A stretch of 64,000 nt of DNA. It comes from Bacteroidota bacterium. GTDB taxonomy: Bacteria > Bacteroidota > Bacteroidia > AKYH767-A > OLB10. Below, piece after piece: positions 9,812-42,775 of the stretch. Within the stretch, counting starts at the first letter, position 1. Each line of letters starts with the position of its first letter. A model generated the notes under the pieces. That model ran no database searches. It was given only the letters and a program-made list of their open reading frames with translations, and had not been told where the DNA came from. The DNA lies in assembly GCA_016713525.1 (NCBI GenBank), contig JADJOZ010000001.1:716225-780224 (forward strand), in the 5' to 3' direction. The position numbers and the translations under genes were made by a program.

Positions 9812-9980
9812 AGATTCTGTTAAAATTTACGGTAAAGCATCATCCTTTTCAGGGTGGTGCTTTCTATGTTTCTGAGGCAACTTTTTTCATAACTGGTACG
9901 TCTGTTAAAATAGGTAATAAAATTCTTTTGATTATCCAATTTTAATCCTTTACTTTGATTGAGTATTAACCAACCTAATT

Positions 9981-12677
9981 ATGATCAAATCATTACGTCT
10001 GTTAGCTGCCTTAATTTTACTAAGTCAAGCATCATTTTCCCAATTAGTTCCCTGCATCGGAACGCAGTCCCTGACTGCAACTCCTCCGCCAAATGCGGCT
10101 GGAGCCTATGCTCCCGGAACAGTGGTTACTTATTGCTATTCGGTAACAGATTACGCTCAAAGTGTAGCTGACTGGATAGCAGGGATTCACCCAACATTTG
10201 GGCCGGGCTGGGATTTAACGACACTGATTCCGATTTCCGCATCTCCAAGTTGCGACGGTCAGGGTAATTGGGCATGGTATACTTCATGTACCGGAACAGC
10301 TTCAGGTATTACTTATGGTCCCGGATTCTATTACGATACTCCTGCCGGTGGTCCGGGATTAGATGGAATTCCCGGAAATAATTTCGGTGATAACTGTCAG
10401 GCATTTACCTGGAACTTCTGCTTTCAGGTGACTGTTGCAGCTAATGCACCCCAACTTACCGATCTCACTGTTTGTGTTCAGGCGCTGTCCGATTATCAGG
10501 CCGGTTCATGGGGAAATGATGGTTGTAGTGATGCCTGCGAATCGCTTGAAGCATTCGTTCAGGTTTGTACACTCATCATTCCTTCTGCAGTTATAACCAA
10601 TGCATCATGTGCTAATACCAATGATGGTTCAATTGTGGTAACGCCATCCGGACTACCACCTTATTCTTTCCTTTGGAGCAATGGAGCTACTACAGGTACA
10701 TTAAGTAATGTGCCTCCCGGTATATATACTTTAACAGTAACCGATTCCGCTGATTGCGATAAAGTTGTAACATTCCAGGTTGGTGGTCCGCAACCAATTA
10801 ATCTTAATGCAACAGTAGTGCAGGATGGATGTGTACCTGGTGGTGGTTCTGTAACTCTCGCACCAACAGGTGGAACCGGTGCTTCTTATACTTATCTGTG
10901 GAGTGATGGAACAACATCGAATTCATTGAACAATCTTACCGGTGGAACCTATACAGTTACTGTCACCGATGCTAATTCCTGCACCGAAACACAAACATTT
11001 ACCATAACATCAGTCGCACCAGTATCTGTCACAGCCAGCAGTACGAATTCTACATGTACCGGCAATAACGGATCGGCAACAGCTACTATTTCAGGTGGAA
11101 CAGCTCCATTTGTCTATAACTGGAGTCCTTCAGGAGGATCCGGAGCCACTGCATCAAACCTTGGACCGGGAACTTACACTGTTTTGGTGACCGATTCAAA
11201 TGGTTGCACTTCCACAGCACAGGCTACCGTTTTAGCAATCGGGTCATTTACTTTAACATCATCATTTATTCCTCTGGCATGTGATCCGCAAGGCACCACC
11301 TCGGCCACAGTAACCGTTAACGGAGGAACAGCACCCTATACCTATTCATGGACACCATCGGGAGGTACTTCCGCAACTGCAACCGGGCTCACTTCAGGAA
11401 CCTATGTTGTTTATGTTACTGATGCCAATAGCTGTGTCGATTCCAATACTATTGTTATTCCTGGAGTTATTCCTGTAACATTAAATACCAGTGCAACTTC
11501 GGTTCAGTGTAATGTCCCTAATTCAGGTTCTGTAATTGTAACCGCTACTGGTGGTGTTGCACCCTATACTTACTTATGGTCAGATGGGTCAACATCTGCT
11601 TCGGTGACTGGTTTACCGGGAGGATTATACACAGTCACTGTTACAGATGCAAACGGATGTACTTCTGATGCAACTTCATTAGTGAATGTAATTCCTGATG
11701 TGTTTGTTACTGCCGGAAGCGATCAAACTGTATGTGCCGGTCAGCCTGCTACCATTACTGCAAGCGCAACCGGAGGTACTTCACCTTTTGGCTATACCTG
11801 GAATAATGGCCCAACAATAGATTCTCAAACCGTAAATCCTATTGTAACTACTACTTATACAGTAACAGTGATTGATGCTAATTCCTGTACCGCAACTTCT
11901 TTTGTGACGGTAAATGTGGAGCAATATCCTGTAGTTTCTGTGAGTTCAAATGCATCTATTTGTTATGGTGCGAGCACACAACTTACCGCATCTGGTGGAA
12001 GTACATTCAGCTGGTCTCCTGTTGACGGATTAAGTGATCCTGCCATATCAAATCCTGTAGCTTCTCCATTAACAACTACTCCTTATACTGTGACGGTAAG
12101 CAACGGACTTTGTTCAAGCACAGGTAATGTGATTGTAACTGTTGAGCCTGAAATACAAACTGCATTTTCACCCGATACCACTCAGGGCGAAGCACCACTT
12201 GAAGTAACTTTCACCAATACCACTTCCGGTGCCTCCACATATCTGTGGGATTTTGGTGATGGCAATATCAGCAATGCTGTTTCACCAACAAATACTTATA
12301 CCGAGCAGGGTAGTTATACTGTTACCATGGTTGCAACCAATTCTTTGGGATGTACCGATACTTTGAAATTTACCTACATTGTAGTTAATGAGTATGCTGC
12401 TCTAGTTATTCCCAATGTATTCACACCAAATGGAGATGGTAAAAATGATGAGTTTAGCTTTATAGAGACAGGAATTTCATCTATAAGCGTTAACATCTTC
12501 AACAGATGGGGTAATGAGATTTATTCCTGGAATGAAAAAGCAAAAGGCTGGAATGGAAAATCTAAAGATGGTTCTGAAGCACCCGATGGTGTTTACTTCT
12601 ATGTGATCAAAGCCAGAGGCATTGATGATAAACCTTACAATTATCAGGGTACGGTCCAATTAATCAGAGTTAAATAA
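9981..12677 (+). CDS. T9SS type-B C-terminal domain cargo protein with SprB repeats and a PKD domain
   Basis: Signal peptide. Multiple SprB-type repeats (NASCANTNDGSI...PYSFLWSNG...YT[LV]TVTD..C). PKD-like block YLWDFGDGN. C-terminal gliding-motility CTD FTPNGDGKNDEF...YFYVIKARG...GTVQLIRVK. Confidence 0.8.
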   Translation: MIKSLRLLAALILLSQASFSQLVPCIGTQSLTATPPPNAAGAYAPGTVVTYCYSVTDYAQSVADWIAGIHPTFGPGWDLTTLIPISASPSCDGQGNWAWYTSCTGTASGITYGPGFYYDTPAGGPGLDGIPGNNFGDNCQAFTWNFCFQVTVAANAPQLTDLTVCVQALSDYQAGSWGNDGCSDACESLEAFVQVCTLIIPSAVITNASCANTNDGSIVVTPSGLPPYSFLWSNGATTGTLSNVPPGIYTLTVTDSADCDKVVTFQVGGPQPINLNATVVQDGCVPGGGSVTLAPTGGTGASYTYLWSDGTTSNSLNNLTGGTYTVTVTDANSCTETQTFTITSVAPVSVTASSTNSTCTGNNGSATATISGGTAPFVYNWSPSGGSGATASNLGPGTYTVLVTDSNGCTSTAQATVLAIGSFTLTSSFIPLACDPQGTTSATVTVNGGTAPYTYSWTPSGGTSATATGLTSGTYVVYVTDANSCVDSNTIVIPGVIPVTLNTSATSVQCNVPNSGSVIVTATGGVAPYTYLWSDGSTSASVTGLPGGLYTVTVTDANGCTSDATSLVNVIPDVFVTAGSDQTVCAGQPATITASATGGTSPFGYTWNNGPTIDSQTVNPIVTTTYTVTVIDANSCTATSFVTVNVEQYPVVSVSSNASICYGASTQLTASGGSTFSWSPVDGLSDPAISNPVASPLTTTPYTVTVSNGLCSSTGNVIVTVEPEIQTAFSPDTTQGEAPLEVTFTNTTSGASTYLWDFGDGNISNAVSPTNTYTEQGSYTVTMVATNSLGCTDTLKFTYIVVNEYAALVIPNVFTPNGDGKNDEFSFIETGISSISVNIFNRWGNEIYSWNEKAKGWNGKSKDGSEAPDGVYFYVIKARGIDDKPYNYQGTVQLIRVK

Positions 12678-30740: not shown

Positions 30741-30770
30741 TTTGGCTGACATAAACCTAAATGTTCTACT
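30741..30770 (+). promoter_or_regulatory. Bacteroidota-type promoter for tRNA-Ser (-33 TTG ... -7 TACTTTTG)
   Basis: TACTTTTG matches the TAnnTTTG -7 consensus ~10 nt upstream of the tRNA 5' end, with TTTGG about 22 nt further upstream. Confidence 0.5.
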
Positions 30771-30779
30771 TTTGCCCCC

Positions 30780-30869
30780 GGAGAGTTGGCAGAGCGGTCG
30801 ATTGCGGCAGTCTTGAAAACTGTTGAGGTGTTAAAGCCTCCTGGGGTTCGAATCCCTAACTCTCCGCCA
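30780..30869 (+). tRNA. tRNA-Ser (anticodon UGA), type II with long variable arm, CCA encoded
   Basis: Cloverleaf was built by hand. Acceptor GGAGAGT/ACTCTCC, D-arm GCA..TGC, anticodon stem GCAGT/ACTGT with loop CTTGAAA (anticodon TGA), variable arm GAGG...CCTC, T-arm TGGGG-TTCGAAT-CCCTA, discriminator G, then CCA. Confidence 0.85.
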
Positions 30870-30880
30870 ACAAAAAATCA

Positions 30881-30910
30881 ATGCCCCTTTCGGGGCATTT
30901 TTTATTTTAT
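30881..30910 (+). terminator. intrinsic terminator after tRNA-Ser (ATGCCCC-TTTC-GGGGCAT then a T-tract)
   Basis: Perfect 7-bp GC-rich stem followed by TTTTTTATTTT. Confidence 0.7.
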
Positions 30911-30953
30911 GCCGTTGCCAAGCTTGCTTGAGCAAAAGGCAGAAATAAAAAAT

Positions 30954-31326
30954 GACGGCACAAAGTGCCGCATTGGTTTTTTGTTGAAGCCACCCCCAAA
31001 AGGGATCAGCGAAGCTAATCCCTTTTGGGAAAAAGCCCTGATCAAACTTGTTTGAATCGGGGCTTTTGCTTTTTCCAGCAACCAACCTTGGTTGGTTGCT
31101 TTTTGTTGAAGCCACCCCCCAACGGGATCAGCGAAGCTAATCCCTAACACCAATAAGAACCTGCAGCAACCAACCTTGGTTGGTTGGTTTTTGTTGATGC
31201 CACCCCCTAACGGGATCAGCGCAGCTAATCCCTAGCAAAAATCGCAGACCAATATCAACCAACTTTAGTTGGTTGTTTTTTGTTGAAGCCACCCCCAAAA
31301 CGGGATCAGCGAAGCAACAATTCGCA
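30954..31326 (+). repeat. tandem modular repeat array (4 units, ~88-bp period). Each unit is a palindromic hairpin with a T-tract followed by a conserved 45-nt motif TTTTTGTTGAAGCCACCCCC(N)AACGGGATCAGCGAAGCTAATCCC.
   Basis: Motif copies at 30975-31022, 31100-31144, 31188-31232 and 31277-31326. The preceding hairpins are CGGCACAAAGTGCCG, GCAACCAACCTTGGTTGGTTGC (twice) and CAACCAACTTTAGTTGGTTG. An extra terminator-like hairpin sits at 31032-31074. Confidence 0.75.
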
Positions 31327-31430
31327 TGCCTGTGTCGATGCCAGGTAAAACCTTTTGAACTGGATAAGGAAGAAAATTTCACGTTGGATACGGGAATTAA
31401 GGTTTGTTCCCATATAATTTTATTACATTT
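31318..31430 (+). promoter_or_regulatory. conserved ~110-nt upstream element, copy A (core CTTTTGAACTGG...GAAAATTTCAC..GGATACG.GAATT at 31352-31400)
   Basis: A near-identical element recurs at 33228-33340. Each lies ~200 nt upstream of the next start codon (31552 and 33458). Confidence 0.5.
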
Positions 31431-31551
31431 GAATAAAAAAATTCCAAAATTGATGGGTTTGCTGATACTAAACTTTAAATCGTTTTAGGTCCCTATAGTT
31501 ACCATTTTAACGCTCCGGACAAGTAGGAGAAAAAATTCAAAATAAGCTGCA

Positions 31552-33205
31552 ATGAAAAACATTCACAAAAATCTGCTTCTTGTTATTCTGACTTTTAATT
31601 TTTGCTTTTATTCTCTTTCCTATTCTCAAAATATTCCTACAATTCAGTGGCAAAATACTATAGGGGGAAGTAGTTTTGATTTCCTTTATTCTGCAGAGCA
31701 AACAACAGATGGTGGCTATATTCTTGTAGGATATTCTTATTCAAACATTTCAGGAGATAAAACTGAAAACTTTATAGGTAGTTATGGCAGAAGTGATTAT
31801 TGGATTGTAAAAACTGATTCATCAGGTAACATTCTGTGGCAGAACACTATCGGAGGAGAATATGAAGAAGCACTTACTTCCATAAAACAAACAACTGATG
31901 GGGGATATATTTTGGGTGGATTTTCACAGTCAAACGCTTCAGGCGATAAAACAGAAAATAATTATGATACTTTATGCGCAACTTTCGATTACTGGATTGT
32001 AAAAACAGATTCACTTGGAAATTTAATTTTGGGACATCACCATTGGTGGAAGTGATGAAGATAGACTTTTGGCTATTGAGCAAACAGCAGATAATGGTTT
32101 TATTCTAGGTGGATTTTCCAGATCAAATATTTCAGGTGTTAAAGTTGAAAATAATATTGGTGCATCTCCAACAACTGATTACTGGATTGTAAAAACTGAT
32201 TCGCTTGGCAATATTGAATGGCAAAACACAATTGGAGGTAGTTTATATGACTATCTTTATTCTATTAAGGAAACTCAGGACGGAGGTTACATTCTTGGAG
32301 GAATGTCTTGTTCAAACATTTCAGGTGATAAAACGGAAACCTGCCTATGGTATGGAGACTATTGGATTATAAAAACAGATTCACTGGGAACAATTCAATG
32401 GCAGAATACAATTGGAGGAAATGGCAATGACGCACTTTTTTCATTAGTACAAACCTCAGATGGAGGATATTTACTAGGTGGAGAATCTAATTCGAATATT
32501 TCGTGGGATAAGACTGAAAACAGCATGGGTGACTTTGATTATTGGATTGTAAAAACGAACTCAGTTGGAAACATTCAGTGGCAAAACACTATCGGAGGAA
32601 GTGAAGGTGATTTTCTCGAATCATTACAGCAAACCACTGACGGTGGCTATATACTTGGCGGCTGGTCCCTGTCAAACATTTCAGGCGATAAAACACAAAA
32701 TAATTGTGATAGTACTTTGGGCTATCCAGATTTCTGGATTGTGAAAACCGATGCTGCTGGAAGCATACAGTGGCAAAATACTATCGGGGGCAGTAAAAAC
32801 GATAAGCTTCATTCCATTGAACAAACAATTGACGGCGGATACATTCTTGGTGGCTATTCAGAATCAGACATTTCAGGAAATAAAACAGAAAATTGCATTG
32901 GCTATTCAGATTACTGGATTGTAAAACTTACTCCAGAAACAATCACTTCAAGTGTGCAAACGCCCTATCAGCAATTACCAATTTTAATTTCTCCCAATCC
33001 TTTTACAGATAAATTAAATGTTACTGTCAATAATAGTGAACTTTCAGAAATTATTCTTTATGACATGACAGCAAGAAAAATAATGCAAATGAATTTTACA
33101 AATTCCATTACTCTAAATACAGAACAGCTTGCAAAGGGTTTGTATATTTATGAATTGCGAATTAAAAATGGTATGTCCCCAAAAGGGAAAATTGTGAAAG
33201 ATTGA
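31552..33205 (+). CDS. 7-bladed beta-propeller-like repeat protein with T9SS type-A CTD, frameshift at T-run 32017-32020
   Basis: Track ORFs 31552-32055 and 32069-33205 form one gene. Removing one T from TTTT at 32017-32020 gives a continuous ...DSLGNLIWDITIGGSDEDRLLAIEQTADNGFILGG. There are seven ~60-aa repeats (QWQNTIGGS..D...S..QT.DGGYILGG.S.SNISGDKTEN....DYWIVKTDS.GNI), a signal peptide, and a C-terminal ISPNPFTDKLNVTV...GLYIYELRI type-A CTD. Confidence 0.65.
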
Positions 33206-33227
33206 GACGGTTATAAGCAAGTTTGCA

Positions 33228-33340
33228 CGGGCTTCGTTTCAGTATCCCTGCCAGACATAATCTTTTGAACTGGTCAGGATGAAAATTTCACACCGGATAC
33301 GTGAATTCAGCCTTATTTCCTGAAGGTATTTAAATTTGAA
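33228..33340 (+). promoter_or_regulatory. conserved ~110-nt upstream element, copy B
   Basis: CTGCCAGACATAATCTTTTGAACTGGTCAGGATGAAAATTTCACACCGGATACGTGAATTCAG...AAATTTGAAT aligns with copy A. Confidence 0.5.
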
Positions 33341-34693: not shown

Positions 34694-35119
34694 ATGCAGT
34701 ATTTACTTTATCTGTTAGTCCTTTTTTACTTTTTGTATACACTTTCGTATGCTTTGAAATTCAATAGGGCCAACATTTACTATGCAGGTAAACAAAAGCT
34801 TGTCCATAATCTCATGATTTGGCTGGTTCCTTTTCTGTGGATTCTGCTCTTAAAAACCATTGACAGACCAATTGGAAGAAATTCGTTTTCCCAAGAACCA
34901 GAAACCGGTCCTGATGGAAGTGATGGAGGCGGGCCACCGGATTCTATTCATTTTTTCATGGATCCGGAAGTGCATCGGATGGAGGTTACTCCGGCTCCGA
35001 CTCAGGTGGCTACGATAACCATGGATATGACTCCGGTGGAAGTGGAAATTCAGGTGGTAGTGGAGATGGTGGGGATTAGGGGGGGCATTGCAAAGGCTAA
35101 ACATTATACAATAATATAG
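34694..35119 (+). CDS. hypothetical membrane protein (C-terminus possibly frameshifted)
   Basis: Two TM helices. The alternative frame after the T6 run near 34957-34962 gives a Gly/Ser/Asp/Tyr-rich low-complexity tail (GSGSASDGGYSGSDSGGYDNHGYDSGGSGNSGGSGDGGD). Confidence 0.3.
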   Translation: MQYLLYLLVLFYFLYTLSYALKFNRANIYYAGKQKLVHNLMIWLVPFLWILLLKTIDRPIGRNSFSQEPETGPDGSDGGGPPDSIHFFMDPEVHRMEVTPAPTQVATITMDMTPVEVEIQVVVEMVGIRGGIAKAKHYTII

Positions 35120-35198
35120 GACAACCTTTGAAATTGAGAGTGTTTTGCCGCAAAATACTTAAAAGTTTAGAATCATTTTATATAGTATTTTAAATGAG

Positions 35199-36572
35199 TT
35201 ATTTTTTATTTACTTTAAATTTCCCAGCAACTATTCTTAAATATTTCACTACGATAAAAATTGGAAATAACAGACAAAAAAACAATGATAAAAACCCTAT
35301 TTGCAATTGTTTTTGAATATCTAACATAAACAAGAACACAGAAACGATTAAAGTCAATATAATGTAGTTAATGAAACTATAAATTGGTTCTTTAAGTGTT
35401 GGGTCGAAAATAATCCAATTGAAAGGGTTTTTCTCATAGCCCATCAATTCTGGATTGAAAAAATATAGATATAAAAGGAATAGACAAAAAATTAGGATAT
35501 TGATTAAAATTCCGTTAGCAAGTTGAACTATGCTCAGCTTGTAATACAGGCTATTTCTCGAATCATTATTGACTTGCAATTTAATGATTTTTGAATTTGT
35601 TTTTGTAATTGGATCATGAAGACGGACGTCATAATTTCCAGATCGAAATTTCCTCTTTAAAAGAATTTTTAACTGGCTATTTTCTAGCTGAAACTCAAAA
35701 TCTTTGTTTATTTTATTTGGAACTAAAGAATTAATAAATTGAACTTCAATTTTGTCTTGATCTAAAATATTGTAGGTTCTAAAATCAAAAATTAAAGGGA
35801 TTTCCTGGTCAAATTTACTGCCATTGATGTTCAGAGAGTCATTGCCATCAAATTGATGATTTAATAAGGCTATAGTAGGTGCTTCAGTTTCAACAAGAGC
35901 GGAAATCAATAGAGAGAATGGTTTGGAGTTAGAATTTTCGAAAAAGTCAGGGATCAAAATTACTGAACCAGAATCAATTAATCCAACTATAAAATATATG
36001 CTTTCTTGTTTACAAGATGAAACTAACCTGAAATTGTGAGATTCAAAGTTGCTTTGGTTTAGAACTTGAGGAAAGTTATTTGTAGAATTTAAAAGTTGAT
36101 ATTCAGCATGTGTTAGCGATGACGTTACTTTAATATCAACAGTATTAAATTCGATAAATATTTTACTTTGCAGAGGAGAACTGGATGTCATACCGGATGC
36201 CCTTTTTGGAGTATGCAGTGGAACATAGTTAACTAGTAACAGTAAATGTGAATCTATATAAAGGAGTTTACCATTGATTAGATTTCGGGTTTGAATTTGA
36301 GCATTGACATCAAAAATGCGTTCTTGAAATTGGGAATTCATTTCCGTATAAGTAAATTCATGAACCCTGATATTTGTTGTACTTGAAGATTCATATTTAA
36401 CTAAAAGGCAAATTTTATTTTCTGAAAAAGTAGCATCTAAAATTTCAGGTTTAAGTTGAGAGTCAATTCGTTTGTGAGAGATATTTTTGTAAATCATGTC
36501 GTAATTATTAGTGTTAGCATCAGATTTCGTATAAATCAAAATTCCCAAAATAATTAAAATTAGCTGTCTCAT
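35199..36572 (-). CDS. hypothetical protein: signal peptide, large extracytoplasmic domain, C-terminal TM helices
   Basis: 457-aa AT-rich ORF with N-terminal MRQLILIILGILIYT and C-terminal hydrophobic helices. No recognisable domain. Confidence 0.4.
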   Translation of the reverse strand: MRQLILIILGILIYTKSDANTNNYDMIYKNISHKRIDSQLKPEILDATFSENKICLLVKYESSSTTNIRVHEFTYTEMNSQFQERIFDVNAQIQTRNLINGKLLYIDSHLLLLVNYVPLHTPKRASGMTSSSPLQSKIFIEFNTVDIKVTSSLTHAEYQLLNSTNNFPQVLNQSNFESHNFRLVSSCKQESIYFIVGLIDSGSVILIPDFFENSNSKPFSLLISALVETEAPTIALLNHQFDGNDSLNINGSKFDQEIPLIFDFRTYNILDQDKIEVQFINSLVPNKINKDFEFQLENSQLKILLKRKFRSGNYDVRLHDPITKTNSKIIKLQVNNDSRNSLYYKLSIVQLANGILINILIFCLFLLYLYFFNPELMGYEKNPFNWIIFDPTLKEPIYSFINYIILTLIVSVFLFMLDIQKQLQIGFLSLFFCLLFPIFIVVKYLRIVAGKFKVNKK

Positions 36573-37140
36573 AGTGATAGATTTGTTTGATTTGGAAAAT
36601 GTATATCAGGGTTTTTATTGAAAATTTACACTTTGATTTTTTTCGGATTGATTTATTTGGAAGAAATATTAATTTTATTATTGGTGTATTTAAGCTGCTT
36701 AGTAATTGCTTTCAACAAATTTCACAATTATTGGACTGGATTTCCATCTTAAATAATTTCAAATTTATAAGAATATTAGAGATTTCCAAAATTGCGTTCT
36801 GTAAAACTTGTTTTTATCGAAAACTAGTAATGATTTAGTGCATGATGAGTTATCGATTGAGTTGTAATGATCATTGAAATAGCTTGAAAACAGACACATG
36901 TTGTCAGGTGTTGTTTACATAAGTATTTGAATATTGCAATTTATTGAATATCAGAATAATGTAATACTTACTTAAGGTTTTGGTTGGCTTTTCAGGAAAA
37001 TAGGTAAGGTTTTCTTGCTAACGAAGCAGTTTATTTAATTTCACACTTTTTCGTGGACCATCCTAACTATTTTTTTTAAGGGGAAGAAGTGGGTTCGGGG
37101 AAAAAATGTACTTTTGGTACTAAACTTAAAACTAAAATTT

Positions 37141-37494
37141 ATGAAAAGATCTACTTTGATTGCAATTGCAATTTTTATCGCCTGTAATGTGAATGGGCAA
37201 ACGAATACAGATTCTACTCAGGTCAGAATTGAAATGGTTCAATTGAATTTAAACAAGTATTATAACCAGACAAGGACAGGTACTGGGATATTCGCTTTTG
37301 GAGCTTTACTTGGGACTGCTACACTTATTGGATTGGATCGACAGCAAGGTGAATATAGGTTACGTAATAGTTTGTACGGAGTTGCTGGAGCTGCTGCTTT
37401 GACCGGGTTGCTTATAAATATGGAAGCAATTCGTTTTGTTCGCGAGGCTTCAGAGATTTCCATTGGACCAGGGGGTGCAAAAATTAAATTTTAA
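37141..37494 (+). CDS. hypothetical secreted or membrane protein
   Basis: Signal peptide (MKRSTLIAIAIFIACNVNGQ) and a Gly/Ala-rich TM-like segment. First gene of a three-gene co-oriented cluster. Confidence 0.35.
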   Translation: MKRSTLIAIAIFIACNVNGQTNTDSTQVRIEMVQLNLNKYYNQTRTGTGIFAFGALLGTATLIGLDRQQGEYRLRNSLYGVAGAAALTGLLINMEAIRFVREASEISIGPGGAKIKF

Positions 37495-37509
37495 CACATT
37501 TTAATTAGT

Positions 37510-37854
37510 ATGACTGAAGAAAATGAAAAGTTGCAAACGAAGCATAAGCAACAATTTTGGTTCAAAGTAGGATTGACTGTTATAATTCTATTGTGGCTCT
37601 CTAATTTTTTGATTTTGTTTTGTCATAATCCTGGAACTATTGGTGATTCTTTTGGTGTTGTTAATTCACTCTTCAGTGGATTAGCATTTGGAGGAATAAT
37701 TTATACAATCATACTTCAAAGGGATGAACTACAACTTCAAAGAGACGAACTTAGTTTAACTCGATTAGAATTGAAGAGATCTGCTAATGCACAGGAAGAT
37801 TCTCAAAAGGCTCTTGAAAGGCAAGCAGCTAATTTGAAAAAAGTGCAGAATTGA
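37510..37854 (+). CDS. hypothetical membrane-anchored coiled-coil protein
   Basis: Two TM helices, then a coiled coil with an internal LQRDELQLQRDEL duplication. It starts 16 nt after the previous gene. Confidence 0.35.
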   Translation: MTEENEKLQTKHKQQFWFKVGLTVIILLWLSNFLILFCHNPGTIGDSFGVVNSLFSGLAFGGIIYTIILQRDELQLQRDELSLTRLELKRSANAQEDSQKALERQAANLKKVQN

Positions 37855-38063
37855 GTGCTCTAACAACTCTTATTGAATATTACCAAGGTTTGAATACTAA
37901 AACTTATGACATTATAGCTAAAGAAAGATACAATGATGTGATCACCATTTATATTGCAAGAATTTCTCAAATACTTGAAGATAAACAAAGCTAGATAAAA
38001 AATTCATATAGTTGCATTCTGATACTGATAGTTTTTACAATAATCTGATAAATTTGATTTTTT

Positions 38064-38909
38064 ATGCTTAATGAAATAAGAGATGGCTGGTCCCATTTTA
38101 TTGATAGGTTAAAAAGTCCATTTGGTGGAACATTTATATTTATCTGGATAATCACCCATTGGGAATTCATTTATTATCTAATTTTTGTCAGTTCTGATGT
38201 GACAGCTGAAGAACGAATTATAAACTTTAAATTTTTTTTTCAAGGAAGTCTTGGTAAAAGATTTATCTTGGATGTATTGCAACCTGCATTATTAACATTT
38301 CTCGCAATTGCAACATATCATAGCTTTTCCATTGTAGCGGGAGTAATCACCGGTGCTTTTAAGCGTTATTTGGAGCCCTGGATTTCAGGTGAATTGGGGA
38401 CTGGACCAACCGTTTTGAAATCTGAACTGGATTTGGAATCTCAAAGATTAATGAAACTCCAATTAGAATTAACAAAATGTCAAGATTTGAGAAATGATGA
38501 ATCTAGGCGGAATTTAGGTTCTGAACAAGAATTGAAAAGTAGTATAAATGTTTATTTGGGCCAGCTGAATAATGCAAATGCCAAAATTAATGATATTGAA
38601 AACAGACTGAAAATTTTAAGCGAAGGAGACAATAAACAATTATCAGATTTACATTATAAGCAGAGATTGAAAGAATTAAGATGCTTGGATTTTAGAAATG
38701 ACAGGCATCCAGGGTTAAGGGATATAATGAAGGATAAAAAATATAATTTTTATTTCGATGATGTAACCAAATCATTTAATCGAGAATCATTCAACTTGGA
38801 TGACAGTTCCTATCTTGTAGATGGAGTTAAAAAGTACAATATTTCAACAGTGATGATTAATCATATATACAAAATCAGGTGTATTTTGAAAAAGGGATAT
38901 GAAAAATAA
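38064..38909 (+). CDS. hypothetical membrane protein with C-terminal coiled-coil
   Basis: 281 aa with N-terminal TM helices followed by a long coiled-coil and charged region. No recognisable domain. Confidence 0.4.
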   Translation: MLNEIRDGWSHFIDRLKSPFGGTFIFIWIITHWEFIYYLIFVSSDVTAEERIINFKFFFQGSLGKRFILDVLQPALLTFLAIATYHSFSIVAGVITGAFKRYLEPWISGELGTGPTVLKSELDLESQRLMKLQLELTKCQDLRNDESRRNLGSEQELKSSINVYLGQLNNANAKINDIENRLKILSEGDNKQLSDLHYKQRLKELRCLDFRNDRHPGLRDIMKDKKYNFYFDDVTKSFNRESFNLDDSSYLVDGVKKYNISTVMINHIYKIRCILKKGYEK

Positions 38910-39089
38910 TTTGGTCTATATTAATTTAATAAATTATTCAATGCTAAATAATGGTACTTATTTTGGGTTTGAATTGAATTATGCAACCCAAAAAATGTAT
39001 AAAATTCTATATTCACCAGTTGATATTTCAGAGTTCCAAAATTATTTCTCTGGAACTGAGGATAATTAAGTAATTTGTCGCCTGTGCAT

Positions 39090-39707
39090 CTATCCAGCCC
39101 CATTCTGAGCCACATACTTTTCCGTACACACTTTAACATACTCCAAGCCTCCTCGCTTATCATCCCCACCGTGAAGGGAATTCTCACGGGGTTTAAAGGG
39201 GTTCAGAATATAATTCTTGTACCTGCAGTAGTCGCCTAATTTCTTTTTAAACTGCCGGGAATCACAGTACATCCTTTGTTTTGGGTAAATATCATAAAAG
39301 TGATCCGTGAGCTCCTTTCGGCTTATTTCCACGTTAAGATTGTTAGGATCTGAAAAGTAGGTATCTGCCCAATCCATAAATGACTCTCCGATATCCTGCC
39401 GGAGCTTTCTGGCTTGAATATTCTCAAATGGGGGAGACACTATCCCGAATTTAAAATAAAGCTTCAGACAGGTCGCCATGAGGTTGTAAAACAGATTCCA
39501 CTGGTCGAACTCCCATTCATCAAAGAAAAGCACTCCGAAATCGTCCACCGGTCGCAAATGTGGACCGTAATAGTCTGAAAAGACCATAAACGCCTGGCGA
39601 TCGCTGTGGCTGTATCCGGAGCCGGACAGGGCATGATTGGTTGTAAGGAAGATCTTGGGACTGTTGGTTAGAGTGAGTCGCTTGTCATATTTGCCTTCAA
39701 TTTGCAT
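39090..39707 (-). pseudogene. C-terminal fragment of a P4-type phage/plasmid primase-helicase (D5-like), remnant
   Basis: KIFLTTNHALSGSGYSHSDRQAFMVF...FFDEWEF resembles the region after the ATPase core of P4-family primases. The N-terminal primase and Walker A parts are absent. No flanking integrase. Confidence 0.3.
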
Positions 39708-41378: not shown

Positions 41379-42775
41379 TTAATTTTTAACAATAGCCTGA
41401 TTCGTAATTGACAATTTTTCAATTAAAGCCAATGTTTGTCTGTATTCAGCTGCCTCTGAAAGTTTTGTGAATTCTATTTCAGCATTTGTTGTTGTGAGAA
41501 TGAATTTTTCTAATTCATCCAATGTAATTTTGAAAAATTCTTTTCGATAATTAATTTTATTTAGTCTTTGGTTATCGAATTGTTTGTGAATTTCGTATTC
41601 CAATTGTGGTGCATTTTCAGAGTAAATTATTGCATGTACATCGAAATGGAACGGTACAGAGGCATCACCTAATTCCTTAACGCGCTCTTTAGGGTCAAGT
41701 CTACGGGTCATGCCAATTTTGTAAACATTTTCGCCAAATGCACCAATGTTAGAAACAACATATATGTGACCTACTTTTGTTTGCTGAGCCATTGATATTG
41801 CTCTGTCTTTGCGTTCGTGTGCCAATTGTAATTCGGCTTCTAATTGAGCAATTTTTTCCAGTAATTCATTCTTGTTATCAATAAGTCCGGATTCGAGTTG
41901 CTGTTTTGTTTTTTCAATTTCCTTTTCAAAGACTATTTCATCCTGTTCAGCAGATTTTTTTGCACGTTCTAACTCACGTAAAGCACGTTCTTCCTCCTTC
42001 ATCTGTTCTTTAAGACGTTTTTGCTCCTCTTTCTCTTCATATTTTTTTGGAGTTCATATTCATAGGTCAATGCTAATTCTTCAAGTTTGCATTCTAGGAA
42101 GGATTTGGTGACATAAATTTCATGACTTGAACCCAAGGTATTTACATTTTCATAAATCTTGACGATACGTTCTTTGGACTTTTCTATATTGTTCCATTTG
42201 ACTTTTGATATAATTGCTTCACATTCCCCATTAAATGCGAAGATCATAAGTTTTTCATACTGCTTCGTCATTTTTTTTCCTTCAGATTGACTACCACCTA
42301 CCACCCATTGCCTGTCACATTTTGCACCAGCACCTTGTTTAATTAGAAGTCTCTGCTTTTGATAATTTAATTCTAATTTTTCTGAATATTGTGAGCTTAC
42401 TTCAAAGTTAAATTGAGGTTGATATACGCCATAAGTTCCAAGTTCCAGTGTATCTTGAAACAATTCGATTTCCTTCCTCATTTTGGAAATATCTTCTGAA
42501 GTTGCATCAAATGTGCTTTTCTGACCTTCAAGTTGCAATTTTAAATCTTTGACCTTTTCTTCAAATGAATTTATTGATTCAGACATTTTTGCTAATGGTC
42601 CAAATTGAATTATGTGTTCTTTCAATTTGTCCACTTCCAAATAAGCAGAATCTTTTTCTAAATTTAAGCTGGTAATCTTTTTTCTCAAACTGCTTATTAT
42701 AATAAAAGCAACAATCGAAGTAAGGACAATTCCGATTCCTAAGCCGAACAAAGTATGTGTTTGATCATCCATCAT
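41379..42775 (-). CDS. DUF4041 plus T5orf172 (GIY-YIG-like) domain protein, frameshift in homopolymer at 42043-42049
   Basis: Track ORFs 41999-42775 (TM, coiled coil, DUF4041-like) and 41379-42002 (T5orf172-like: VGHIYVVSNIGAFGENVYKIGMTRRLDPKERVKELGD...) are one gene. Adding one A to the A7 run on the coding strand gives a continuous ...YELQKKYEEKEEQKRLKEQMKEEERALRELERAKK. Confidence 0.7.

Follow-up and report, generated by a model that had tools for sequence, protein, structure and literature searches.

Four copies of a structured motif stand in tandem behind a tRNA-Ser gene in the window, the whole 64-kb stretch of Bacteroidota DNA analysed here, and raise the question of what kind of element they represent. 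The array arose within one lineage by tandem amplification of a conserved, tRNA-Ser-linked module. As to the nature of the module, we tentatively favor a tRNA-linked small RNA that resembles the 3' part of a tRNA, is read from the + strand and was tandemly amplified in the lineage of the window, a reading to which we give a little less than an even chance.

Anatomy of the array

The tRNA-Ser(TGA) gene (30780-30869) is followed by a terminator hairpin with a T-run (hairpin at 30880-30899) and then by the four motif copies, which have the form TTTTTTGTTGAWGCCACCCCC(N3-5)GGGATCAGCGMAGCTAATCCC, measure about 46 nt and are interleaved with terminator-like hairpins (Table 1). The motif pattern has three to four matches in the window against 0.00 expected, and 12 terminator-like sites lie between 30400 and 31700 against 1.6 expected. 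Four modules of about 88 bp had been described in the original prediction; the number of copies and the period stood (Tandem Repeats Finder: period 88, 2.7 copies, 85% matches), but the copies start 122, 88 and 89 nt apart, the first period being longer because the extra terminator T2 intervenes, and copy 4 is truncated, ending immediately after GCGAAGC at position 31315. T2 itself, formerly listed as a fifth terminator-like hairpin, is real.

Hairpins precede all copies (CGGCACAAAGTGCCG at 30956-30970, CAACCAACCTTGGTTGGTTG at 31079-31098 and 31167-31186, and CAACCAACTTTAGTTGGTTG at 31256-31275), though not as the perfect palindromes once described, the 22-nt palindrome being perfect in one instance only and the second ending in G, not C. 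Likewise, the 9-bp motif stem (GGGATCAGC/GCTAATCCC) was found, capped by GCGAAGC and interrupted by a single C.A mismatch, but copy 3 carries a GCGCAGC cap and the stem of copy 1 is lengthened to 16 bp (30995-31029). The module boundaries had to be redrawn: in the ancestral single-copy form, the T-tract is part of the conserved motif and not of the hairpin before it. At least four spurious ORF calls in the window are produced by the modules.

Table 1. Features of the tRNA-Ser locus and the array behind it (positions in the window).
Feature	Position	Strand	Basis or remark
tRNA promoter, Bacteroidota type: -33 TTTG and -7 TACTTTTG	30741..30774	+	regex TAnnTTTG; sole such box ahead of the array
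tRNA-Ser(TGA) gene, CCA encoded	30780..30869	+	ARAGORN; Rfam tRNA 52.4 bits; 100% identical in L001
T1, intrinsic terminator of the tRNA, 8-bp stem and T-run, A-run at flank	30880..30907	+	
P region, small hairpin (CTTGC-TTGA-GCAAG-like) and A-rich tract; upstream part of the conserved core unit	30918..30955	+	alignment
Hairpin A, CGGCAC-AAA-GTGCCG	30956..30970	.	terminator scan, both strands
M1, motif copy 1, ancestral-type: block 1 TTTTTTGTTGAAGCCACCCCC, then hairpin B (16 bp, 30995-31029; GCGAAGC cap)	30977..31029	+	covariance model 81 bits
T2, intrinsic terminator following M1	31031..31075	+	hairpin and T-run
hpN-1, 10-bp palindromic hairpin adjoining the T-run of copy 2	31077..31100	+	
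Motif copy 2, hairpin B at 31124-31144	31100..31144	+	covariance model 78.5 bits
Tail 2, TAACACCAATAAGAACCTGCAG, starts with tRNA-matching TAAC	31145..31166	+	
hpN-2 hairpin	31167..31186	+	
Motif copy 3, GATGCC variant, GCGCAGC cap, hairpin B at 31212-31232	31187..31232	+	covariance model 75.1 bits
Tail 3, TAGCAAAAATCGCAGACCAATAT	31233..31255	+	20/23 identical to tail of L001 copy d
hpN-3 hairpin, CAACCAACTTTAGTTGGTTG	31256..31275	+	compared with hpN-1/hpN-2: compensatory C-G to T-A change
Motif copy 4, truncated after GCGAAGC; right-hand array breakpoint	31276..31315	+	covariance model 41.3 bits
~85-nt segment, first copy (second at 33240-33322); pair flanks a 1.9-kb two-ORF block	31330..31412	+	block missing in L001 and L013

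Terminator T1 is flanked by an A-run and could therefore work in both directions, while hairpin A resembles a - strand terminator because a T-run directly follows it on that strand. At the position of the P region, other lineages have a different hairpin. T2 is only 70.8% identical to its counterpart in L001, a metagenome-assembled genome, yet a hairpin with a T-run follows the corresponding copy there as well. Downstream of the array, the two-ORF block, missing from two relatives, is followed by low-GC DNA, in agreement with the island-like junction behind the tRNA that had been proposed. Pfam analysis of 19 ORFs between 25 and 49 kb of the window revealed a glycosyltransferase, GWxTD, T9SS cargo, DUF2715, glyoxalase and T5orf172/DUF4041 proteins; no RAYT (TnpA-REP) gene turned up among these ORFs.

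Distribution and linkage to tRNA-Ser

Pattern scans of genomes and metagenomes yielded seven loci besides the window, one of which (L002) is the window's own contig, and synteny look-ups added three further loci. The sample is small, comprising three tRNA-linked Bacteroidota lineages and one diverged copy without a nearby tRNA. At every tRNA-linked locus, the motif lies 3' of a tRNA-Ser gene or of a tRNA-Ser 3' remnant, in direct orientation; each genome has one such locus. The adjoining tRNA-Ser has the anticodon TGA in the window, L001, L012 and L013, GGA in L003 and L008, and CGA in L006; remnants adjoin the motif in L004, L005 and L007. The interval between tRNA and repeat is 163-232 bp. 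Given its place behind tRNA-Ser in further Bacteroidota and a conservation equal to that of the tRNA, the element is probably a hitherto unrecognized small RNA or the relic of a recombination site.

A search by synteny with the Omp85 gene beside L003 showed that only L008, whose intergenic region is identical to that of L003, keeps the tRNA; L009, L010, L011, L016 and L017 from the same search revealed neither tRNA nor motif. In L003, L004 and L007, the loci of other lineages that allowed checking, the downstream gene is convergent. The exact motif pattern occurred at one locus in the L001 assembly and nowhere in the rest of 185,579 species genomes, and a covariance model detected no further copy in the 64-kb window. 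No motif was found by three pattern scans of viral contigs and BLAST against plasmids and phages, and translations of the motif's open frames compared with 5.8 billion proteins gave 2153 word candidates, but none at E <= 10. Rfam 15, run on the window and six loci, returned tRNA only at the gathering threshold and sub-threshold chance matches only up to E of 10; the motif is a new covariance-model target that is not in Rfam.

The array comprises four copies in the window and L012, five plus a degenerate one in L001, four plus a degenerate one in L013, and two in L005, and both copy number and copy order vary among close relatives. All four copies in L013 carry the GCGCAGC cap, which is a sign of concerted evolution. 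The hpN hairpin is confined to the arrays.

Derivation from the tRNA

The ancestral module, represented in the window by copy 1 and standing singly at the loci of two other Bacteroidota lineages, lies just past the tRNA-Ser terminator in the orientation of the tRNA. It starts with one or two small accessory hairpins, followed by a U-run and the C-rich block UUUUGUUGAAGCCUCCCC, continues with the invariant 9-bp hairpin GGGAUCAGC-GNA-GCUAAUCCC, which keeps the C.A mismatch, and ends with a tail copying the acceptor 3' strand of the adjoining tRNA and with its own intrinsic terminator. At single-copy loci, this tail tracks the acceptor strand of whichever tRNA-Ser adjoins, being an exact copy of the tRNA 3' end over 19/19 nt in L003 and 18/18 nt in L006, the tRNAs of which differ from one another. 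The direct repeat begins within the T-loop (AATCCC...) at both loci, with 6-7 nt of identity only to its left. In addition, block 1 (TGTTGAAGCCTCC) matches the variable arm of tRNA-Ser(TGA) (TGTTAAAGCCTCC) at 12 of 13 positions in the same order (p about 0.001-0.02).

In the window, the 10 nt AATCCCTAAC are common to the tRNA 3' end and motif copy 2 (9/10 in copy 3). This match had been taken as a hint of attachment-site remnants and is genuine homology, given the variable-arm match in block 1 and the exact 18-19-nt copies at single-copy loci. The motif reproduces the final ~45 nt of a tRNA-Ser in remodelled form, namely the variable arm, the T arm made into a longer hairpin, and the acceptor strand.

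The arrays of one lineage hold up to five full paralogues with differing 22-nt tails. Beyond TAAC, the tails in the lineage of the window lack a tRNA match, and tRNA mimicry is therefore not essential there. An origin of these tails as decayed tRNA trailer (ACAAAAAATC...) was considered and dropped, as the resemblance was not significant (p > 0.17 in 17 of 18 comparisons, 0.011 in the other). The 64-kb window contains no second copy of the tRNA 3' end that could mark an island boundary.

Conservation and structure

Comparison of the window with L001 gave 100% identity for the tRNA and 99.1% (114/115) for the core unit of 115 nt (P region, hairpin A and M1), against 75% for upstream intergenic DNA and 87-92% for flanking genes. 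With 99% identity in the unit against 75% in intergenic DNA, the core unit is under selection. An alignment of 19 motif copies, drawn from three lineages, shows no variation in 32 columns. All hairpin caps read G-N-A, and any base can stand at N (GAA, GCA, GGA or GTA). The loop of the stem ranges from 3 to about 27 nt, and loop insertions, where present, form hairpins of their own whose loop is GAA or GUGA. Sequence changes in the accessory hairpins and in T2 preserve the pairing; the outermost pair of hairpin A, for example, is G-C, C-G or U-A across lineages. Hairpin B, by comparison, revealed zero covariation, eight of its pairs never varying, which is equally compatible with a DNA site bound by a protein.

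Folding predicted an alternative helix, UUUUGUUGA:UCAGCGNAG, that can form on the + strand only, includes three G.U pairs and differs from the hairpin by no more than 2-4 kcal/mol. Competition between the two pairings would account for the frozen state of both motif blocks. Folding of single sequences did not separate the strands, z-scores being similar on both. A conserved peptide was rejected as an explanation: linker indels break the frame, L006 has a stop and L007 a frameshift, and the conservation is not codon-like.

Tail identity among the window, L001 and L013 is 82-100%, and a near-same tail, one base off, occurs twice within L013. Tail 2 is identical or one base off in L013 and 19/22 identical in L001. 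Tails 2 and 3 (22-23 nt) have no other match within the window. These tails are the variable single-stranded seeds of the original prediction.

Transcription signals and strand

The -33/-7 promoter arrangement of the window's tRNA-Ser gene recurs 5' of the tRNA-Ser genes in L001, L003 and L006. The TAnnTTTG -7 box is present 5' of each of these four genes and absent from the units and arrays on both strands; the conserved TTnTTTTG at the 5' edge of the motif is without the A of this box. A strong terminator precedes each module, which makes expression of distal copies hard to explain. On the + strand, all tRNA-linked single-copy loci have a terminator after the motif, as do the arrays after their ancestral-type copy, and array terminators are present after the copies except for the truncated copy 4. 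There are also hints of the - strand, on which the C.A mismatch would be G.U and hairpin A makes a good terminator whatever the lineage. Readings as a sigma-54 promoter, an ECF promoter or a complete cloverleaf were rejected by eye, since spacing or partner strands misfit.

Small RNAs released from tRNA transcripts, such as the 3' external transcribed spacer of E. coli glyW-cysT-leuZ, are known, as are paralogous sRNA families. The modules resemble the former in lying directly 3' of a tRNA in the same orientation and in being small, strongly conserved and equipped with their own intrinsic terminator; in contrast, they lack a canonical promoter, derive from the tRNA body and stand in tandem copies that each follow a terminator. 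For the family of ~85-nt sRNAs originally proposed, the evidence is divided. Terminators kept by compensatory change and the strong conservation of the motif would speak for it; the array lacks a canonical Bacteroidota promoter, and the supposed seeds are conserved and have no other match in the window, which speaks against it.

Alternative explanations

In the strongest alternative, the modules might instead be attachment-site relics at the DNA level, that is, an element-side arm plus core (attR-type) left by elements targeting the T-loop and 3' end of tRNA-Ser. The array would then have grown by tandem accretion or unequal exchange, the hairpins would be terminators carried along with each tRNA 3' end, and conservation would come from recognition by a trans-acting integrase, making an RNA function unnecessary. 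We regard this as a real possibility, if a somewhat improbable one. It is supported by the exact direct repeats at the motif 3' ends in L003 and L006, where we judge the 6-7 nt of left-hand identity too short for homologous gene conversion, so that site-specific exchange is favored. Integrated elements are pervasively marked by displaced tRNA 3' fragments (PMC4383910; PMC9897764), and mobilizable transposons of Bacteroides integrate at tRNA-Ser (PMC13597742). A genuine insertion at the same tRNA is seen in L005, where foreign genes are followed by GAATCCCTAACTCTCCGCCA without the tRNA 5' part and then by the array. Moreover, the DNA straight after the tRNA is wholly different in the window, L001 and L005, the downstream genes are variable, low-GC and defence-like, and the TAnnTTTG scan found the modules without a promoter.

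The loci share with tRNA-targeting integrative elements (Islander-type islands, CIME/IME remnants, and NBU2/MTnBf8 at Bacteroides tRNA-Ser) a partial tRNA 3' copy downstream of an intact gene in direct orientation, the identity block from T-loop to CCA end, tandem copies and a hot spot of variable genes. Unlike the att repeats of such elements, however, the repeats lie within 163-232 bp of the tRNA instead of kilobases away, with no integrase or cargo between, and the sequence on the left side of the identity block itself resembles tRNA and hardly varies among three lineages and three isoacceptors. No integrase or recombinase was detected by Pfam among selected ORFs from five loci (25-49 kb of the window, L003, L004, L005 and L007), nor any motif-bounded kb-scale element among the loci of one genome, one metagenome and three viral-contig scans. 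Relics would be expected to decay, yet the core unit is conserved like a gene, far above neutral DNA, and the motif persists beside dead tRNA remnants (L004, L007) and once without any tRNA. A stem loop ranging from 3 to about 27 nt misfits a fixed recombination core, and compensatory change in the accessory hairpins points to a single-stranded structure.

That structure could also be one of DNA. The sequence GCGNAGC is best known from DNA, where it forms an extra-stable mini-hairpin at ssDNA origins, primase sites and the hairpin promoters of phage N4; its RNA form is less stable (PMC13037366). The motif has the same cap with all four bases at N, the C-G closing pair and the G-N-A loop, so that a folded + strand hairpin might be recognized as a signal for priming or single-strand initiation or as a folded recombination site, left behind or exploited by an element that moves by conjugation or replicates as a rolling circle. 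Folded recombination sites are indeed brought to mind by the invariant stem, its conserved mismatch and the differing length of the terminal structure. Here, though, the cap sits on a 9-bp stem of a chromosomal tRNA-linked repeat with no ssDNA replicon in sight: relaxase, Rep or HUH genes are absent nearby, plasmid and phage collections gave no matches, and complementary core sites of the R''/R' type were absent on reading the sequence. A single-strand signal, which we consider very improbable, would also fail to explain why the motif is so strictly tied to tRNA-Ser and why its tail derives from the tRNA. An integron attC array was rejected as well on reading the sequence, because GTTGAAG ends in G rather than Y, its complement is absent from the module and the 88-nt spacing leaves no room for cassettes; so were repeats of type III toxin-antitoxin systems (ToxI-like), the downstream genes encoding T9SS-tail or DUF2715 proteins or being convergent in L003, L004 and L007.

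A dispersed repeat of the REP/BIME type or a CRISPR-like guide array is scarcely credible: imperfect palindromes are clustered in tandem in the intergenic region at a gene 3' end, and short variable segments separate conserved repeats, but motif and hairpins occupy one locus per genome instead of hundreds and in direct, not alternating, orientation, Pfam found no cas genes in 19 ORFs of the 25-49 kb part of the window, and the would-be spacers do not turn over, being common to species and once repeated within L013, with a conserved 20-nt hairpin in each unit besides. The original prediction was thus right to set CRISPR aside, and its REP/BIME-like alternative is not supported.

Proposed origin and significance

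Returning to a tRNA-linked small RNA, we propose that the module most likely arose by duplication of the tRNA 3' part, as site-specific recombination at the T-loop produces. Transcription of the + strand, started at a non-canonical promoter or reading through from the tRNA and its strong promoter, would yield a small structured RNA like the 3' part of a tRNA, whose two conserved blocks may pair in two mutually exclusive ways. In the lineage of the window, unequal recombination would have multiplied a shortened unit (motif, 22-nt tail and terminator hairpin) to two to six copies per locus. The anatomy, the linkage and homology to the tRNA, the strong conservation and the changes in copy number are established; transcription, strand and any RNA activity are what we infer.

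In its fullest form, which we think rather unlikely, the proposal describes a new small-RNA family behind tRNA-Ser in Chitinophagales-like Bacteroidota, born from the 3' part of a tRNA, endowed with a pairing switch and amplified in one lineage, that could mimic the 3' end of tRNA-Ser or serve as its decoy toward an enzyme, a toxin or an integrase by which this end is read. If the modules are only relics, they would be a compact, conserved "solo att" structure marking recombination hot spots at tRNA-Ser in environmental Bacteroidota. If they are transcribed, they would represent a rare case of a bacterial functional RNA born from a tRNA fragment, standing beside its parent gene and matching the acceptor end, and the sensing or mimicry of tRNA 3' ends would become testable.

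Anatomy of the array

The tRNA-Ser(TGA) gene, the sole tRNA gene of the window, has a textbook Bacteroidota promoter and is followed, 3' of its terminator, by four copies of the motif TTTTTTGTTGAWGCCACCCCC(N3-5)GGGATCAGCGMAGCTAATCCC, a pattern with a chance expectation of 0.00. Start-to-start distances of the copies are 122, 88, and 89 nt, the array has a period of 88 (Tandem Repeats Finder), and 12 terminator-like sites were observed against 1.6 expected. All array elements listed in the original prediction were recovered with small corrections only; of a 22-nt palindrome described there as twice perfect, the first copy is so, while the outer pair of the second is imperfect. Four ORFs that overlap the tRNA and the array are indeed repeat artefacts. 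Since the motif can be read without a stop in three frames (LLKPPPxGISEANP, GISFADPxGGWLQQK, and GLASLIPxGGGFNKK), gene callers may yield such peptides wherever it occurs.

Coordinates of features at the tRNA-Ser locus and downstream of it
Feature	Position	Strand	Remark
tRNA-Ser promoter	TTTG - 22 nt - TACTTTTG at 30767	+	
tRNA-Ser(TGA)	30780-30869	+	
tRNA terminator	30880-30899 plus T-run	+	array begins 3' of it
Motif copy 1	stem 16 bp, 30995-31029	+	own terminator at 31031-31075
Motif copy 4	ends at 31315, after GCGAAGC	+	shorter than other copies
Artefact ORFs	30786-31055 (+), 30831-31115 (-), 30902-31153 (-), 31137-31382 (-)		81-94 aa
1.9-kb block	31316-33240		
First ORF of block	31552-32055		no Pfam match
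Second ORF of block	32069-33205		T9SS sorting tail
Duplicated ~85-nt segment	31330-31412 and 33240-33322		
Low-GC stretch	35000-39500 and 41379-42775		GC 0.29-0.34
T5orf172/MUG113 protein	41379-42002	-	beside DUF4041 protein
DUF4041 protein	41999-42775	-	beside T5orf172/MUG113 protein

Rfam 15 holds no family for the motif: in the cmscan suggested earlier, only the tRNA matched, at the gathering threshold as well as with hits up to E = 10 admitted. The motif, the palindromic hairpins before copies 2, 3, and 4 (hpN-1, hpN-2, and hpN-3), and the tails behind the copies have no further occurrence in the 64-kb window outside the array, and a pattern scan of one genome per species, covering 185,579 species, gave just one matching stretch, which belongs to the related MAG L001; the REP/BIME-like reading, that is, a dispersed REP-type repeat, is thereby ruled out. 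A CRISPR-like store, already rejected in the original prediction, is ruled out as well, since the tails, its "spacers", are common to related species: tail 2 is identical to that of L001 at 19 of 22 positions and recurs in L013, identical or with one base different, and tail 3 agrees with L001 at 20 of 23. Genes adjoining the array are ordinary (glycosyltransferase, GWxTD, T9SS cargo, DUF2715, and glyoxalase).

Relatives and copy number

In the window's lineage, comprising Bacteroidia/"Bacteroidetes bacterium" MAGs (L001, L005, L012, and L013) and the window's own contig (L002), the array always lies 3' of the orthologous tRNA-Ser(TGA), while copy number and order vary: four copies in the window and L012, five and one degenerate copy in L001, four and one degenerate copy in L013, and two in L005. 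All four L013 caps read GCGCAGC, a uniformity that indicates concerted evolution. Constant across these arrays is a sub-unit of P region, hairpin A (both accessory upstream parts), and extended-stem motif, followed in every locus by a terminator of variable sequence.

L003 and L008, of a lineage judged Chitinophagales-like from protein names, carry one copy 107 nt 3' of tRNA-Ser(GGA), and L006 carries one 3' of tRNA-Ser(CGA). L004 and L007 have the L006-type unit 3' of a decayed tRNA-Ser 3' remnant, GTTCGAAAGTTGTCCCCTCCGCCCCGCCA (L007 6440-6475 and L004 13360-13395, both - strand), with no detectable tRNA; the same terminator and unit as at the intact L006 locus follow, so the motif outlived the tRNA there. 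In their hairpin loop, 19-20 nt are inserted, the 3' part of which (GCGGAGG) has its complement in the tail (CCTCCGC).

A covariance model from 19 motif copies, run over 177 kb of the DNA analysed, matched the known copies and only one diverged copy, L007:2134-2210, without a tRNA nearby. This copy (26 bits; region 2105-2222, + strand), inverted and some 4 kb distant from the main one of L007, is preceded by GGAGAGTAGGGGTTCGATT, resembling the tRNA-Ser 5' acceptor strand fused to the T-arm, and folds into a three-way junction closed by GGAG/CUCC.

The variable junction

The junction behind the array is a variable hot spot. Its 1.9-kb block, present in the window and L012 and absent from L001 and L013, consists of two adjacent ORFs, perhaps a single gene interrupted by a frameshift. 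Flanking it are two copies of an ~85-nt segment whose usual place is before the DUF2715 gene, and the block has the look of an insertion mediated by duplication at the array's right edge. The low-GC stretch beyond (against ~0.40 upstream), with ORFs lacking Pfam matches and the T5orf172/DUF4041 pair, has the appearance of an island or defence-gene neighbourhood on the downstream side of the tRNA, and the ORFs scanned there included no integrase. At L005 1-1172, a tRNA-Ser 3' fragment, GAATCCCTAACTCTCCGCCA (1153-1172), occurs without a tRNA body, preceded by small ORFs without Pfam match, and the contig stops before any integrase. The fragment is a true displaced tRNA end and implies that an element integrated at tRNA-Ser in that relative.

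Conservation and origin

Between the window and L001, identity is 100% in the tRNA and 99.1% (114/115) over P region, hairpin A, and motif 1, compared with 75% in upstream intergenic DNA, 87-92% in flanking genes, and 70.8% in T2, the terminator after motif copy 1; despite this divergence of T2, a hairpin plus T-run still lies 3' of the corresponding L001 copy. The motif has 32 columns in which no base differs across the three lineages. Within hairpin B, the 9-bp stem capped by GCGNAGC, eight pairs are constant and one position, C.A (A.A in one case), stays unpaired throughout, indicating sequence constraint only and no covariation. The accessory hairpins do vary in a compensatory way: the outer pair of hairpin A is G-C, C-G, or U-A, hpN-3 has T-A for the C-G of hpN-1 and hpN-2, the L005 hpN is CCCACCAACC/GGTTGGTGGG, and the P-region hairpin differs in sequence in each lineage. 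Judged from these sequences, the motif unit is evidently under selection.

The motif runs on as AATCCCGCCCTCTCCGCCA in L003 and as AATCCCCCTCTCTCCGCC in L006, each an exact copy of the adjoining tRNA's 3' end; these tRNAs are unlike each other, and each is copied by its own neighbouring motif. Block 1, the C-rich 5' part TGTTGAAGCCTCC, matches the tRNA-Ser(TGA) variable arm TGTTAAAGCCTCC at 12 of 13 positions, and this match is collinear with the T arm's GGG...AATCCC. Its p value against shuffles is about 0.001-0.02; for the GGA tRNA the match falls short of significance. By both observations, the motif is a remodelled version of the last ~45 nt of tRNA-Ser, its T-loop swapped for a longer hairpin. 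The 10-nt tRNA match from which att remnants had been suspected is what the window's lineage retains of this homology. In L003, similarity between tRNA 3' end and motif tail (9869-9925 and 10032-10090) reaches into both terminators, at about 75-80% over ~35 nt by eye and with compensatory changes; the segment duplicated in that lineage thus included the tRNA's terminator.

RNA or DNA

A + strand RNA is the reading that we tentatively favour for the selected entity. Every cap is G-N-A, where N may be any base, closed by a C-G pair, and the hairpin inserted in the L004 and L007 loop has a GAA or GUGA loop, both pointing to the + strand; all single-copy loci linked to a tRNA have a + strand terminator 3' of the motif. 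On this strand only, an alternative helix, UUUUGUUGA:UCAGCGNAG (three G.U pairs) plus CCC:GGG, is a rival of hairpin B, and in L003 and L006 their energies are no more than 2-4 kcal/mol apart; two competing pairings would explain the freezing of both blocks. Pointing to the - strand, the C.A mismatch would there become a G.U pair, and in each lineage hairpin A and the following TTTTTCATTCCC together form a good terminator on the - strand. Two features speak against independent sRNA genes: no TAnnTTTG promoter box occurs in the units on either strand, while one lies upstream of each tRNA-Ser, and a strong terminator precedes every array module.

A DNA recombination-site structure is somewhat less probable. 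The literature treats tRNA 3' fragments of this kind as att sites that belong to integrated elements (PMC4383910; PMC9897764) and describes Bacteroides mobilizable transposons that target tRNA-Ser (PMC13597742). A DNA-level origin agrees with an identity block that begins in the T-loop and has no more than 6-7 identical nt on its left side, with the foreign genes in L005 between the (missing) tRNA body and the displaced end, before the array, and with the first ~40 nt 3' of the tRNA being wholly different among the window, L001, and L005. Against a mere relic stand the lack of an integrase among scanned ORFs from five loci, a repeat-to-tRNA distance of only 163-232 bp, the lack of a motif-bounded element in any scan, and a conservation of the unit far above that of intergenic DNA, which argues against decay. 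A single-stranded-DNA signal, kept alive by GCGNAGC being best known as an extra-stable DNA mini-hairpin (PMC13037366), is very improbable.

Whichever molecule is selected, the array is very probably a real, conserved tRNA-Ser-linked module, which is not CRISPR, REP, or an Rfam family, and which derives from the tRNA-Ser 3' part; in the window's lineage, unequal recombination has multiplied it in tandem and rearranged it.
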